The translations under genes were made by a program, and so were the position numbers. A stretch of 45,855 nt of DNA, taken from the IMG/VR virus record IMGVR_UViG_2531839662_000038. One strand, given 5' to 3'. The stretch is from a virus. Lineage: Duplodnaviria > Heunggongvirae > Uroviricota > Caudoviricetes. The notes beneath the pieces were generated by a model. It did not search any database, was not told where the DNA came from, and saw only the letters and a program-made list of their open reading frames with translations. Positions within the stretch are counted from its first letter, which is position 1, and each line of letters starts with the position of its first letter. Below are positions 2,770-39,362 of the stretch, piece by piece.

Positions 2770-3393
2770 TTAAAATTCGAATTGTCTCGCCCGAAGGCTT
2801 TTCAACATTGGTCTTGCCCGTTCGAAAACGGCGCTTGTCTGGTCAAGTCGTGTCGCCTCCCTGAGCAGTACATCTCTGTTTTTCGTCACCGCATAGAAGG
2901 TTTCAAACGCAATGTCATACAGCTTACTCGCGTATGATGAGTTAAGTTCCTTCATTATCGGGTACAGGCGTTTGCAGATGTCCTGTGCATTCTCCATCTG
3001 TACCTGCATGTAGCAGAGGAGGATGATTTCCTCGTCTGTGAATTGCTGCGCTGGTTGCATGCTGCGAAGTTTCTTTTCGCACTCGATGAAGTATCGGCGT
3101 ATCTGGCGGCCTTTTTCGTTGCGCTCGACCATTGCCAGCTCTTTGGCTGTGTCGAGGGTGAGGTGGTAATCCTTGCGGTTGTGACCGCCTCTACCAGATG
3201 TTTGCTTTCCCAAATTGGAAAGCAAAATATAGTCTTGATTTTCAATGAATTCGTATTCTGAAATGCGATTTGTAATCCATGCCGCAAACACCTTTTTCAC
3301 GCCTAAAAAAGCATGCAGATTGCGGGCATTGCAGAGTAGGGCTGTTTCGTTGGCGATAGTGCCGTTGAATACGGGGATGAGTTGACTGGTCAT
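2770..3393 (-). CDS. Phage antirepressor-like protein (AntA/KilAC-type domain), accessory early-left gene
   Basis: 207-aa ORF; segment DYHLTLDTAKELAMVERNEKGRQIRRYFIE resembles the conserved antirepressor C-terminal motif; family call from memory only. Confidence 0.5.
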   Translation of the reverse strand: MTSQLIPVFNGTIANETALLCNARNLHAFLGVKKVFAAWITNRISEYEFIENQDYILLSNLGKQTSGRGGHNRKDYHLTLDTAKELAMVERNEKGRQIRRYFIECEKKLRSMQPAQQFTDEEIILLCYMQVQMENAQDICKRLYPIMKELNSSYASKLYDIAFETFYAVTKNRDVLLREATRLDQTSAVFERARPMLKSLRARQFEF

Positions 3394-3739
3394 TTTTATG
3401 TCCTTTGCATTTGTTCAGATAGCCCTGTGTTCAGCAGGGCGGTCAGGTACTTGAACACCGTGCAAAGTCGGCCCGTATCCTTAACCTTTCGGCTGTTTTT
3501 CGGTATACGCGCTACCCGACCATATCTGAGAAATGGACATAAAAAAGCCGCATGACTGACGGGTGCGGTTTCCGCTTTGCAAGGTGTGTTCAGCACCATG
3601 AAGCGGAATATAGCCCCGTTAATGCGGATTTGTCAAATCATGTAGGCCTTATCTTGCTGTAAGCCGCGCCATTCGGGCTTTTCCCCATATTTGGGGAAAA
3701 CTATCTGCGAATTATTCACCTTTGACGGCAAGTTGCAGG

Positions 3740-4357
3740 TTAGCCACGCTTAACCTCCTGCGGCGGTTCCGGTAGCGGCATCCAGTGAGTTGCTTGCTCA
3801 ATACCATTACCCGGCTTAATCGTTGCATCTCCGCGCCGAAAGGTGCTTCCGGTATAGCGTGCGGAGCATATTAGCGGTTCAACCAGAGAGCTATCGAAAT
3901 TCACCGAAATAAGCACGTTCTGGCCCTTTTCAGGCATTCGCTCACTACAGCTTATCCAACCATCCTTAATGCAATTACCTTGACTCTGAAGCATAGCGGC
4001 ACGACAGGCGTTCCAGCCTCTCACCTCTGCAATAGCGGCAACAGCATCAACCGCGTACATTTTAAGAGGGTTAGGCATTGGTTTTTCTTCCGGTACTACT
4101 GGAACGGGGGGAGCGGCGTAGACCTCAATAATTCCATTATCAATAGGCCATTCTCCATCCTTGAGGTAGTCACTTGCGCCGTCAACTTGCTGTTCTGCAA
4201 TGTGGAATGCACCTATTGGTTTTGCTTCCAGCGATGCCAGTGCAATTCGTGCCAGTTCTTCCGCTTCTTCTGCTGGCAGTACAACGTTGCTACCAGGTCC
4301 GTATGTTTCGCGCCACTGCTTGATTGTCAGTAGTCGCTCTTTGGTAATAGTGGTCAT
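3740..4357 (-). CDS. DUF551-family phage protein
   Basis: 205-aa ORF; C-terminal THWMPLPEPP motif typical of DUF551. Confidence 0.5.
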   Translation of the reverse strand: MTTITKERLLTIKQWRETYGPGSNVVLPAEEAEELARIALASLEAKPIGAFHIAEQQVDGASDYLKDGEWPIDNGIIEVYAAPPVPVVPEEKPMPNPLKMYAVDAVAAIAEVRGWNACRAAMLQSQGNCIKDGWISCSERMPEKGQNVLISVNFDSSLVEPLICSARYTGSTFRRGDATIKPGNGIEQATHWMPLPEPPQEVKRG

Positions 4358-36319: not shown

Positions 36320-36649
36320 TTAGTCATCCATGGATGGATTGAGCTTATCTCGTGTTGATGTGGCAATTTTACCAACATTTTTCAACCAAGATTTTAAGAA
36401 GGATATGTCGTCCTTAATATCATGAATATCCTCATTCTTTATACGATCAACCTTATCCTCTAGGCTCTCTATAGAACGCTCAATGCTAGACAGAGAGATT
36501 TTTAAGTCTCCTTGCTCACGTTCCAGTGAGGATTTGAGAGCACAATATTCGTTTTCTAGAATTCCTATTTTTTTTGTTAGAGAGTGCATTCGATACTCAT
36601 ACACCAAACTAGAAACGACTAATGCAGCCAACAGAAACCATTCAAGCAC
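36320..36649 (-). CDS. Unrecognised membrane protein with N-terminal TM helix and coiled coil (immI-region moron)
   Basis: 109-aa ORF; hydrophobic N-terminus WFLLAALVVSSLVY then heptad-rich region; convergent with gene 16. Confidence 0.5.
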   Translation of the reverse strand: MLEWFLLAALVVSSLVYEYRMHSLTKKIGILENEYCALKSSLEREQGDLKISLSSIERSIESLEDKVDRIKNEDIHDIKDDISFLKSWLKNVGKIATSTRDKLNPSMDD

Positions 36650-37017
36650 ACCAACCTCCTTAGTTTTGCGCAGGATACCAGATGATACTTTATTGGTGGA
36701 GTGGTGTGTGAAAACGTGTCAACGACAAACCATCCACAACTTGGGCGAATGATTTAGCAAAAAGTGCTATTTTTGGTGTTTGGTGTCATAGAAAAGTGAA
36801 TAGCTCACTTTTCAACATTGCATGAAACTTGCAGGAAATGTGACATTACCTTATAGGTAACTTCGGCGAAAATGCAGTAAATGTGAAATGTAATGATTTA
36901 AACGTGTCGATAAAGTGGTTGTAAGTTAGCCTCTGAAGGATTGATGACAGCTTTGTTATGGTATTAAATGCAACTTGACACAGTTGTATACATAGCTGCG
37001 GCTATCAAGATGGAGGT

Positions 37018-37467
37018 ATGTTTATGCTCACTTGTTTTGATGTCGCCGACTACTTCTTGGCGCATTGCGATGAAGAAAGTGGCGACATTATCTCTAACCT
37101 AAAAATTCAGAAGTTGACGTATTATGCCCAAGGGTTTTCTCTGGTTCTTCTGGGTAAGCCGCTATTTAATGAGAAAATTGAAGCCTGGATGCATGGGCCA
37201 GTAGTTCCTGAATTGTATCGTAAATATAGGGACTGTGGTAACGGAGCTTTACCTGCGCCAGAAAACTTTGACGCTAAAAAATTCAGTGAAGATGAAATTG
37301 AATTGCTGGATGAGGTGTATAAAGTTTATGGTCAGTTTTCTGCCTGGAAACTGCGCAATATGACTCACGAAGAGCAGCCATGGAAAGATGCTTACATTGA
37401 GGGTGCGGTTAGCCAAGAAATCACACTTGATTCTATGAAAGGTTTTTTCAAAACGTTAATTAACTGA
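37018..37467 (+). CDS. Panacea-domain (DUF4065, SocA/GepA-like) protein, PanA-antitoxin-like
   Basis: 149-aa ORF; motif KIQKLTYYAQGFSLVLLGKPLFNEKIEAWMHGPVVPELY typical of DUF4065. Confidence 0.65.
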   Translation: MFMLTCFDVADYFLAHCDEESGDIISNLKIQKLTYYAQGFSLVLLGKPLFNEKIEAWMHGPVVPELYRKYRDCGNGALPAPENFDAKKFSEDEIELLDEVYKVYGQFSAWKLRNMTHEEQPWKDAYIEGAVSQEITLDSMKGFFKTLIN

Positions 37468-37472
37468 CGTGT

Positions 37473-37895
37473 ATGTCTAGAGTTAAGGGAAGAATAAAAC
37501 AGAGGGATAAAGAGAGCTCTGCTACTGTTGGCCTCTCTATCCATCACGAATCTCATGATGTAGACAAAAGTCCGCCTGTATTTTCTCTTAGATACCTACA
37601 AAAGGGGTATTGCCTAGATTGCTGCCAAAAGCATGAAAAGGCAGCATTTGCAGATAGGCTGTTCAGGTTAAGTCGGATGTCATGGGATGAGATACGAAAA
37701 TCTGATAAACACGGGCTTGGGACGGAAAAAATTGCCAGAAACGCGATAAAAGCTCCGATTCCTAAGCATGTTACTCAAGATGTGGATTTCATTGCGTTCA
37801 GATTTTGCTCTAAGGCACCTATGGTTGGTTATAAGATAGGAGCCACTTTTTATGTCTTATGGCTCGACAGGGAGTTCAAGCTATACAAGCACTAA
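37473..37895 (+). CDS. Unrecognised protein, operon partner of the Panacea-domain gene (candidate toxin/effector)
   Basis: 140-aa ORF 5 nt after the upstream stop; basic; no family recognised; followed by a strong terminator. Confidence 0.5.
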   Translation: MSRVKGRIKQRDKESSATVGLSIHHESHDVDKSPPVFSLRYLQKGYCLDCCQKHEKAAFADRLFRLSRMSWDEIRKSDKHGLGTEKIARNAIKAPIPKHVTQDVDFIAFRFCSKAPMVGYKIGATFYVLWLDREFKLYKH

Positions 37896-37896
37896 T

Positions 37897-37924
37897 AAAA
37901 CCCACCGTCAGGTGGGTTTTTTTG
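37897..37924 (+). terminator. Intrinsic terminator after the Panacea operon
   Basis: AAACCCACC-GTCA-GGTGGGTTTTTTTGTT. Confidence 0.75.
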
Positions 37925-37939
37925 TTGGAGATAAAATGG

Positions 37940-38143
37940 TTAACCAAATCGATCCTTAAAGCGTCTATCGCTGTTGCGTCTCTCCATTTTACTGTTGCAG
38001 TACGGACAAAGATGCTGTTTCTTTCCATCGATAGTCCATGTGAAGTACTTTTTCTTAAATCCAGCACCACAGATATCGCAACTTCTTGGTTTAAACATAC
38101 TGGCTATGAAGATAAGAACAACAAATCCTATGATCCATTCCAT
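37940..38143 (-). CDS. Small membrane protein with zinc-ribbon (CxxC...CxxC)
   Basis: 67-aa ORF; TM helix WIIGFVVLIFIASMF; CDICG...CPYC. Confidence 0.4.
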   Translation of the reverse strand: MEWIIGFVVLIFIASMFKPRSCDICGAGFKKKYFTWTIDGKKQHLCPYCNSKMERRNSDRRFKDRFG

Positions 38144-38479
38144 ATCATGTACCTGTTTTAACTTTATTTTTTGATTTTTAGGGATTAATCAGAAACTTTA
38201 TCTTGCGATTAAGCAAAGCTACTAGCTAACAAAAGAGTGCGTATACAATCAATCGTTTCACATCAACCTCAACAAGGAGAAATCATGACCATAGAAGAAC
38301 GCCTGAACAACATTGAGTTGAACCAAACCCTGCTTGACCAGCGACTTTCAGATCTTGAGCTTAAAGATCTGGATGCGCAAATATCAGAAGCAGAAGCCAA
38401 GCTCTCCAGCTTAAACCACCGCAAGAAGCAAATCCGCAACAGAATTACTCAGGGACGCGGAAGCCGTTGAAATCATAGT

Positions 38480-38797
38480 CTATTTTTTCTCAGAGCTCAT
38501 ATTGTAATAGGTGGTATAAATAGAGATTGATTTCTGACATGCTTCAAGAAATTGCTGCGGAGTCATCCCGAGCCTTGCTTGCTCTGTAGTAAGGAATCTC
38601 TGTAAGAATTCATTCCCACCTGGCATGTTTGTAGATTCTTGGAATATTGCCATTTGTTTGATTGCACCACACATACCAGCCATTTTAGAAGCTATCATGA
38701 GGCCTTGTATTTCATCAAAACTGCTATCGTCTGATTTTGTTTCTGCGTTAGCTATGCTCGAGAGACACAGGAGCAATAGGATAGCGATACGTTTCAT
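38480..38797 (-). CDS. Small secreted/periplasmic protein with signal peptide
   Basis: 105-aa ORF; signal peptide MKRIAILLLLCLSSIANA; start overlaps mnt stop (ATGA). Confidence 0.5.
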   Translation of the reverse strand: MKRIAILLLLCLSSIANAETKSDDSSFDEIQGLMIASKMAGMCGAIKQMAIFQESTNMPGGNEFLQRFLTTEQARLGMTPQQFLEACQKSISIYTTYYNMSSEKK

Positions 38798-39295: not shown

Positions 39296-39362
39296 AGTAA
39301 AGCCCAAGCTATTGCGAGTAGCTCGGGCTTAAATCGCCAGTAAATTTTGAGGAAAAACTGAC

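Follow-up and report, generated by a model that had tools for sequence, protein, structure and literature searches.

A standalone Panacea protein and its T1-cluster partner, a putative RelE-fold RNase effector, form a moron cassette in a P22-like prophage

The Panacea domain received its present name in a scan for DUF4065 across 20,209 genomes, in which the partners of these proteins fell into 88 groups and 1,268 loci were predicted (Kurata et al. 2022, PMC8832971). Nine PanA–PanT pairs from clusters other than T1 were validated as toxin–antitoxin (TA) systems whose components form complexes (PMC8832971). In a later study employing NetFlax, it was proposed that Panacea may be a sensor and not just a neutraliser, standalone Panacea proteins neutralising directly (PMC10440598). 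Cluster T1 is the first-numbered cluster of the catalogue and, in the available part of its Dataset S1, the tag pT1 occurs at least 395 times, which counts tags and not rows; set against the 1,268 loci, this makes T1 probably the largest cluster of Panacea partners (PMC8832971). The same part of the dataset includes Spiroplasma and Chloroflexi members, and it lists the proteins YP_006560565.1/YP_006560566.1 of Salmonella phage vB_SemP_Emek (hereafter Emek) as pT1/T1, with PanA in the standalone ('noNTD') form and in A–T order (PMC8832971). Here we describe a pair of this type in the IMG/VR virus record IMGVR_UViG_2531839662_000038, a P22-like (Lederbergvirus-type) prophage; the whole stretch of 45,855 nucleotides (nt) that was analyzed is referred to as the window. 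The type of pair, PanAT cluster T1, is thus already known from the catalogue of Kurata et al., and the window pair is a diverged allele of it. What is new is the assignment of a RelE/BECR fold to the partner, its homology to the C-terminal part of NsnC, its invariant residues, corrected start codons and asymmetries in conservation.

A preliminary description of this DNA had taken the upstream open reading frame (ORF; 37018–37467) for a Panacea/DUF4065 protein, and the Pfam search bore this out. PF13274 (SocA_Panacea) was matched with 87 bits (cut-off 25.7; E = 2.2e-24), residues 30–123 being aligned to positions 1–113 of the 113 positions of the profile. The protein, PanA, is acidic (isoelectric point, pI, 4.77), matches phrog_1281 (unknown function; E = 1.5e-59) and carries the RefSeq name 'Panacea domain-containing protein' (WP_001331791.1); it is 58–79% identical to the T1-linked PanA proteins of a cyanobacterium, a Methanosarcinaceae metagenome bin and Serratia. 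Translation probably starts at ATG 37024 (147 amino acids, aa; MLTCFD...) and not at ATG 37018, since the former lies 7 nt after a GGAGG motif and homologues from other phyla begin there. The same motif precedes ATG 37018 by just 1 nt, and GGAGG/GAGG together with an ATGCTxACTTGTTTT block is kept in diverged loci.

The stop codon of panA ends at 37467 and the next ATG lies at 37473, in agreement with the 140-aa basic ORF described earlier as lying 5 nt further 3'. Its product (pI 9.67) had been presented as a protein of no recognised family, whereas it in fact belongs to PanT cluster T1 (PMC8832971). In tblastn searches, the window T1 was 55.8% identical to the T1 gene of Emek (E = 3e-37) and both matched the same family hidden Markov model (HMM); this homology is accompanied by a standalone PanA and by the antitoxin-then-toxin order of the cluster. 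Overall, the window alleles are 70% (PanA) and 51–56% (T1) identical to those of Emek, which carries the pair in the same slot. Further, the genomic features by which PanAT pairs were delimited in 2022 are present, i.e., a partner within 100 nt, an architecture conserved across species and an operon of at most three genes, and the charges of the two proteins are complementary (pI 4.8 and 9.7). The identity of the pair as PanA–T1 is secure.

T1 matches phrog_8366 (unknown function) and is widely distributed. A word-indexed search recovered 258 homologues at E ≤ 1e-3, of about 135–145 aa and typically 45–75% identical, from Enterobacterales, many cyanobacteria and a Methanosarcinaceae metagenome bin, all annotated as 'hypothetical'. 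With the T1 family profile, HMMER retrieved 1,502 clusters (50% identity) at E ≤ 1e-3, 863 of them at E ≤ 1e-10, and nearly all of the best 150 of the 1,502 are stand-alone proteins of the same size. When the window was compared with diverged alleles, synonymous divergence (dS) was saturated in both genes, with non-synonymous divergence (dN) of 0.13–0.46. PGAP nevertheless leaves 37473–37895 unannotated in the E. coli UMNF18 chromosome (L001 6824–7246; L numbers designate the loci that were fetched), and in most of the E. coli genomes listed the PanA gene alone is annotated under the match, so that the family is systematically missing from the RefSeq protein sets for E. coli. These missing annotations, and the lack of an obvious Shine-Dalgarno sequence before ATG 37473, are what could speak for a chance frame or a decayed gene downstream of a PanA that functions alone. 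Such an explanation has next to no probability and is refuted by the conservation data: the homologues cross phyla and fall into some 1,500 clusters (50% identity), dN is low in the face of saturated dS, residues are invariant, the AlphaFold2 model is confident, and the 5-nt spacing, replaced by overlaps in other loci, implies translational coupling.

A search for co-occurrence of the two families had been suggested in the preliminary description, and we scanned 92 fetched loci plus the window with HMMs for PanA and T1. PanA was found directly upstream of T1 and on the same strand in 89 of the 92 loci. Likewise, a PF13274 gene lay immediately upstream of T1, often overlapping it, in all five contexts obtained by exact protein look-up (the cyanobacterium Aerosakkonema, a Serratia siphovirus-like prophage, a Methanosarcinaceae metagenome bin and environmental phage-like contigs). 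The arrangement recurs in Pseudomonas phages, where the upstream gene is annotated as 'prophage ps3 protein 01'. The legacy label 'ps3' is also attached to the PanA gene of Pseudomonas phage CF60a and, in Mycoplasma agalactiae, to MAG6440 ('prophage protein ps3'), which adjoins MAG6450, the namesake of the MAG6450 family (PMC3179502). This shared label suggests that PanA–T1 pairing probably extends to Mollicutes.

Among 39 distinct pairs (L002–L092), the pairwise identities of PanA and T1 were correlated (r = 0.91), and PanA was more conserved than T1 in 97% of the comparisons, with median identities of 56% vs. 45%. In type II TA pairs, it is usually the toxin that is better conserved than the antitoxin. 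Departures from strict pairing were also found. L032 and L035 (about 2980–3327) hold N-terminally truncated T1 remnants without PanA. In L037 (2673–3408), T1 is intact and all that is left of PanA is about 17 C-terminal residues, joined to an upstream ORF, which, judged by eye, appears to be a tail-assembly gene; in L012 (phiv205-1, 2931–3839), T1 is again intact and PanA is frameshifted in an A-run, possibly through a sequencing error. Together, L037 and L012 indicate that T1 can be retained intact where PanA is no longer functional. In L037 and in Serratia, the genes are located among tail genes.

The structure of T1 was modelled with AlphaFold2 from a 56-sequence alignment. Residues 31–140 were predicted with a pLDDT above 92, while the basic, K/R-rich N-terminus (residues 1–30) was disordered. 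The model contains the elements beta(36–38), alpha(53–67), alpha(71–76), beta(85–87), beta(106–111), beta(115–122) and beta(125–131), with a long loop at 88–105. The model shows N-terminal helices packed on an antiparallel beta-sheet, and residues ~35–140 are assigned to the RelE/ParE (BECR) type of fold. At the sequence level, T1 falls outside the described BECR families (RelE, YoeB, HigB, YafQ, ParE and others): no Pfam family, BECR families included, was matched at E ≤ 1, and a search of PDB sequences gave no match, either with T1 alone or with the family profile.

A sequence relationship was detected with the PADLOC model PDLC03891 for NsnC, a protein of the Menshen defence system, where residues 40–137 of T1 were aligned to positions 185–280 of 284 (E = 2.7e-7). 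The same model was matched by 55 of the 56 T1 family members, at best with E = 1.4e-11. The matched region corresponds to NsnC's C-terminal domain, PB-BECR1, a YafQ-like BECR RNase effector with an H-R-H triad that is regarded as the ancestral effector of Menshen (PMC12065111); the profile match makes the T1 core a homologue of this effector domain. The Menshen study makes no mention of Panacea (PMC12065111). T1 also matched NCBIfam NF046006 ('MAG6450 family') below its cut-off, as did 48 of the 56 members. Across 39 distinct phage-borne sequences, residues H80, E85, R110, D132, Y138 and H140 of T1 are invariant, a polar set that looks like an active site. A residue-by-residue correspondence to the active sites of RelE, YoeB or YafQ would be conjectural. 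By contrast, the Cys cluster (CLDCC) to which attention had been drawn earlier is lineage-specific, with just C51 conserved; it is not a metal site, and a zinc or Cys-cluster protein was ruled out.

Members of the cluster have been assayed for toxicity. According to SI Table S1 of Kurata et al., the Emek protein YP_006560566.1 and the E. coli MOD1 protein WP_077635758.1, expressed from pBAD33, were both 'not toxic' in E. coli BW25113, and the predicted mode of action of T1 is given as 'mRNase' (PMC8832971). The Emek protein assayed corresponds to orf161 as annotated, with a start 62 nt inside panA; the N-termini of the family indicate that the true start is a Met 22 codons downstream of the annotated one. 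In the available part of the dataset, a gap of -20 is listed for the MOD1 pair, which suggests that this construct, too, was extended, by about 8 residues. The Emek and E. coli T1 accessions are absent from the NetFlax supplement, and no phage-defence test of a PanA/DUF4065 pair was found in the literature searched. T1 pairs are not validated TAs by the criterion of growth inhibition and rescue. For the earlier proposal of a TA or antiphage pair, the consequence is mixed. The genuine and tightly coupled partner that it implied is there in 89 of 92 loci. Its TA component has lost ground, as the two relatives assayed in BW25113, from Emek and MOD1, are precisely the non-toxic partners that such a proposal does not expect, and the intact T1 genes next to a deleted (L037) or frameshifted (L012) PanA weaken it further.

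With respect to genomic setting, the chromosomes of E. coli UMNF18 and of several porcine enterotoxigenic E. coli strains contain the region 36650–38250 at 100% identity. The equivalent segment of UMNF18 is flanked by ejection-protein genes on one side and by Arc-family/mnt, arc, ant and tailspike genes on the other, and adjoins ybhB/bioA; this annotation and that of phage P22 agree on a slot between gene 16 and mnt. From 36650 to about 37922, the sequence is similar to other E. coli prophages and to Emek. The cassette measures 1.27 kb and has its own leader and terminator and a GC content of 40.8%, vs. 47.1% for the window. The strong intrinsic terminator noted earlier after the pair was recovered as a hairpin at 37897–37920 with a 10-bp stem, a 4-nt loop and a T-run (-18.2 kcal/mol; z = -3.87 vs. 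shuffles). The cassette was present in 166 of 5,426 complete E. coli genomes (~3%), 112 of them at ≥99% identity and 48 at 80–90%, the latter being taken to be carriers of a second allele.

The leader itself, at 36655–37054, is 92–100% identical to that of Emek (L002) at the nucleotide level, whereas both genes are 46–72% identical, with saturated dS; at the 3' end, identity is 86%. On these sequence comparisons, two old alleles of the pair stand behind one recently shared regulatory region. Among the phage records, the leader, of 370 nt, occurs only together with the pair, and it presumably holds the promoter or promoters for the pair and for a divergent 109-aa ORF. It has no Rfam match, and its predicted RNA fold is not significant (z = -1.4). 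Its own terminator, its low GC content, its position in the slot that holds exclusion cargo in P22, one leader for two alleles and presence in 166 of 5,426 genomes characterise the cassette (36650–37925) as a self-contained prophage moron of the PanA–PanT T1 family. Its features are compiled in Table 1.

Table 1. Features of the PanA–T1 cassette (positions are those of the window)
Feature	Position	Strand	Basis
5' leader/intergenic region	36650..37011	+	Nucleotide identity to Emek; occurs only with the pair
Shine-Dalgarno GGAGG for panA	37012..37016	+	Read from the sequence
panA, standalone Panacea protein, 147 aa (149 aa from ATG 37018)	37024..37467	+	PF13274
panT (cluster T1), 140 aa, putative RNase effector	37473..37895	+	Homology to T1
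Intrinsic terminator closing the cassette	37897..37920	+	Stem, T-run, fold energy

Taken together, the RelE-type fold, the relationship to a defence effector domain, the set of invariant polar residues and the anatomy of a moron lead us to favour, with a probability of roughly 45%, an interpretation in which T1, an RNase effector of RelE fold, lacks constitutive toxicity and is bound and controlled by PanA, and the pair serves as prophage conflict cargo. T1 would act as an RNase, probably on mRNA or other translation-linked RNA, without being constitutively active. The acidic PanA would bind the basic T1 in the way standalone Panacea antitoxins bind their toxins, and would control it by keeping it inactive and/or by activating it when a cue is received. 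The conserved leader would drive expression of the pair in the lysogen, and during lytic growth the pair would also be read by the antiterminated late transcript; its role would lie in phage–phage conflict, of the abortive-infection or exclusion type, as for other cargo between gene 16 and mnt. Toxicity is taken to be conditional and not constitutive because of the published non-toxicity, the T1 loci devoid of PanA and the reversed conservation pattern. The stronger conservation of PanA fits the proposal of Panacea as a sensor (PMC10440598), and the relationship to NsnC makes an antiphage role more plausible. Several results weigh against this interpretation. Activity, a trigger or a phage phenotype has been shown for no T1 pair, and non-toxicity could equally mean that T1 is not an effector at all. 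Foldseek searches with the model gave nothing significant (best E = 0.7 in the PDB and 0.28 in BFVD), RelE-type toxins making up the majority of the best-ranked PDB rows of that non-significant search, and hhalign returned no alignment of the T1 family profile with single E. coli YoeB and YafQ sequences, whose residue numbering agrees with the literature. In PADLOC, PanA and the neighbouring proteins match no model, the weak NsnC hit being the only one for T1. Finally, no sigma-70 consensus was found in the leader on either strand, a TTGACA hexamer at 36975–36980 having, on manual inspection, no matching -10 element, and expression in the lysogen is thus assumed.

The same observations accommodate a classical type II TA system, in which PanA is the labile antitoxin of T1, a RelE-like mRNA interferase with constitutive toxicity, the prophage being stabilised or cells killed when PanA is degraded. 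The architecture would be canonical, with the antitoxin gene first, a 5-nt gap or overlaps, and an acidic and a basic partner; the predicted fold of T1 is of the RelE type, and the nine validated PanA–PanT pairs set a precedent (PMC8832971). However, both T1 proteins assayed were non-toxic in E. coli, their native or near-native host, T1 remains intact in L037, which has lost most of PanA, and in L012, with its frameshifted PanA, and PanA evolves more slowly than T1. Even when it is considered that the N-terminal extensions (22 residues in Emek and about 8 inferred for MOD1) might have masked toxicity, and that the window T1 is just ~56% identical to the proteins assayed, we regard this explanation as improbable.

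Two further explanations dispense with constitutive toxicity, and both appear possible but rather unlikely to us. In one of them, PanA–T1 is no TA system but an immune sensor–effector pair, T1, built on the effector module that NsnAB control in Menshen, being an intrinsically silent RelE-fold RNase that PanA, as the sensor, switches on at a foreign phage component; this would explain both why the most abundant Panacea partner is non-toxic on its own and why the 'antitoxin' is the more conserved protein. In the other, the proteins have no part in toxicity or defence and form an accessory pair that binds or processes RNA, or else counteracts defence, to the benefit of the phage life cycle or of host physiology, expression coming mainly from the late transcript. 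The non-toxicity of the T1 relatives is compatible with such a function, as are the failure to find a recognisable lysogenic promoter, the location of the Serratia and L037 pairs among tail genes, and the orientation of the window pair, which, between gene 16 and the tailspike gene, is that of the late operon. In the same direction, transposon insertions in MAG6450 and in the noncoding region upstream of MAG6440 reduced the growth of M. agalactiae on host cells, an effect of the MAG6450 insertion that is neither lethal nor neutral (PMC3179502). On the other hand, the T1 family is equally common in cyanobacterial chromosomes and other non-phage contexts, the closest sequence relative of T1 is a defence effector domain, the invariant His/Arg/Glu/Tyr set would point to catalysis, and the terminator, leader and atypical GC content are those of a moron.

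The pair had also been described as occupying the slot of sieA, which holds for the region between gene 16 and mnt and not for the exact position of sieA. The gene order of P22 is 16, sieA(-), orf59a(-), mnt(-), arc, ant, 9. In the window, the pair is placed between mnt and a minus-strand ORF (36320–36649) whose stop codon abuts that of gene 16 (36319/36320), exactly at the position of sieA in P22. The 109-aa product of this ORF has a hydrophobic helix at its N-terminus and is coiled-coil-like in the remainder; phrog_5962 (unknown function) was matched at E = 5e-61 and PADLOC DpdH weakly, at E = 4.5e-4. The ORF may be the actual exclusion-type gene of the slot. Its counterpart in Emek is a 129-aa ORF that is unrelated or much diverged (36–48% nt identity).

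Downstream of the terminator, we observed an unannotated 67-aa candidate ORF on the minus strand (37940–38143), with an N-terminal hydrophobic helix, a CxxC...CxxC zinc-ribbon motif and weak matches to Pfam zinc ribbons (E about 0.007); the segment that holds it is common to just 8 complete E. coli genomes. A 105-aa ORF (38480–38797, minus strand), just downstream of mnt, begins with a typical Sec signal peptide (MKRIAILLLLCLSSIANA|E) and, since it overlaps mnt by 4 nt, probably forms an operon with it; its product resembles a moron protein, secreted or periplasmic, that is expressed in the lysogen. Between arc and ant, where sar is located in P22, positions 39296–39362 (minus strand) matched sar antisense RNA in Rfam below the threshold (RF00262; 29.3 bits vs. 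a gathering score of 43 bits; E = 0.005).

T1 biology represents a gap in the PanAT story, given that the tested members of what is likely the largest Panacea partner cluster, judged by the available part of Dataset S1, are non-toxic. As a native context, the window is convenient, being a P22-like E. coli prophage whose cassette occurs in two diverged alleles among E. coli genomes, and the NsnC link, the invariant residues and the conservation pattern provide concrete, testable hypotheses. Should a triggered RNase defence be demonstrated for the pair, Panacea as a sensor domain would gain support; otherwise, the pair would be one more catalogued moron. A sensor–effector mechanism, if true, would be the first demonstrated sensory function of Panacea, and in a tractable E. 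coli/P22-like prophage.

Among the described systems, Menshen resembles the pair in that T1 and NsnC share BECR/RelE-type folds and conserved His/Arg/His-type residues. Unlike NsnC, however, T1 has no N-terminal inactive-PIN domain and carries a disordered 35-residue N-terminus instead, and neither nsnA (ParB-DUF262) nor nsnB (ABC ATPase) is nearby. None of the flanking proteins scanned with PADLOC matches an Nsn model, and the presumed controlling partner is PanA instead. With PanA and phage genes as neighbours and no inPIN domain in T1, membership in the three-gene Menshen system was rejected. From RelE, HigB, YoeB and YafQ, T1 is set apart by its position outside all Pfam BECR families, by its disordered basic N-terminus and the 88–105 loop, by a Panacea partner in place of RelB, HigA, YefM or DinJ, and by the non-toxicity of its tested relatives. 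SocAB, the type VI TA system of Caulobacter, is similar insofar as SocA carries a Panacea domain and PanA weakly matches NCBIfam SocA_antitoxin; membership was rejected, as the score against NF047745 was 61.8 bits vs. a cut-off of 190 bits and the partner is T1, with no SocB-like protein. P22 sieA shares with the pair the variable region between gene 16 and mnt and a moron-like character with its own regulatory signals. SieA, however, resides in the inner membrane, and its gene lies next to gene 16 on the minus strand, whereas the pair is an additional plus-strand cassette; neither of its proteins matches the SieA family, so that only the genomic region is shared and assignment to SieA was rejected. 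The closest system is the PanAT pair of Emek, with the same two protein families, the same antitoxin-then-toxin order, a standalone PanA, the same Lederbergvirus slot and a near-identical leader, from which the window differs in that its proteins represent a diverged allele.

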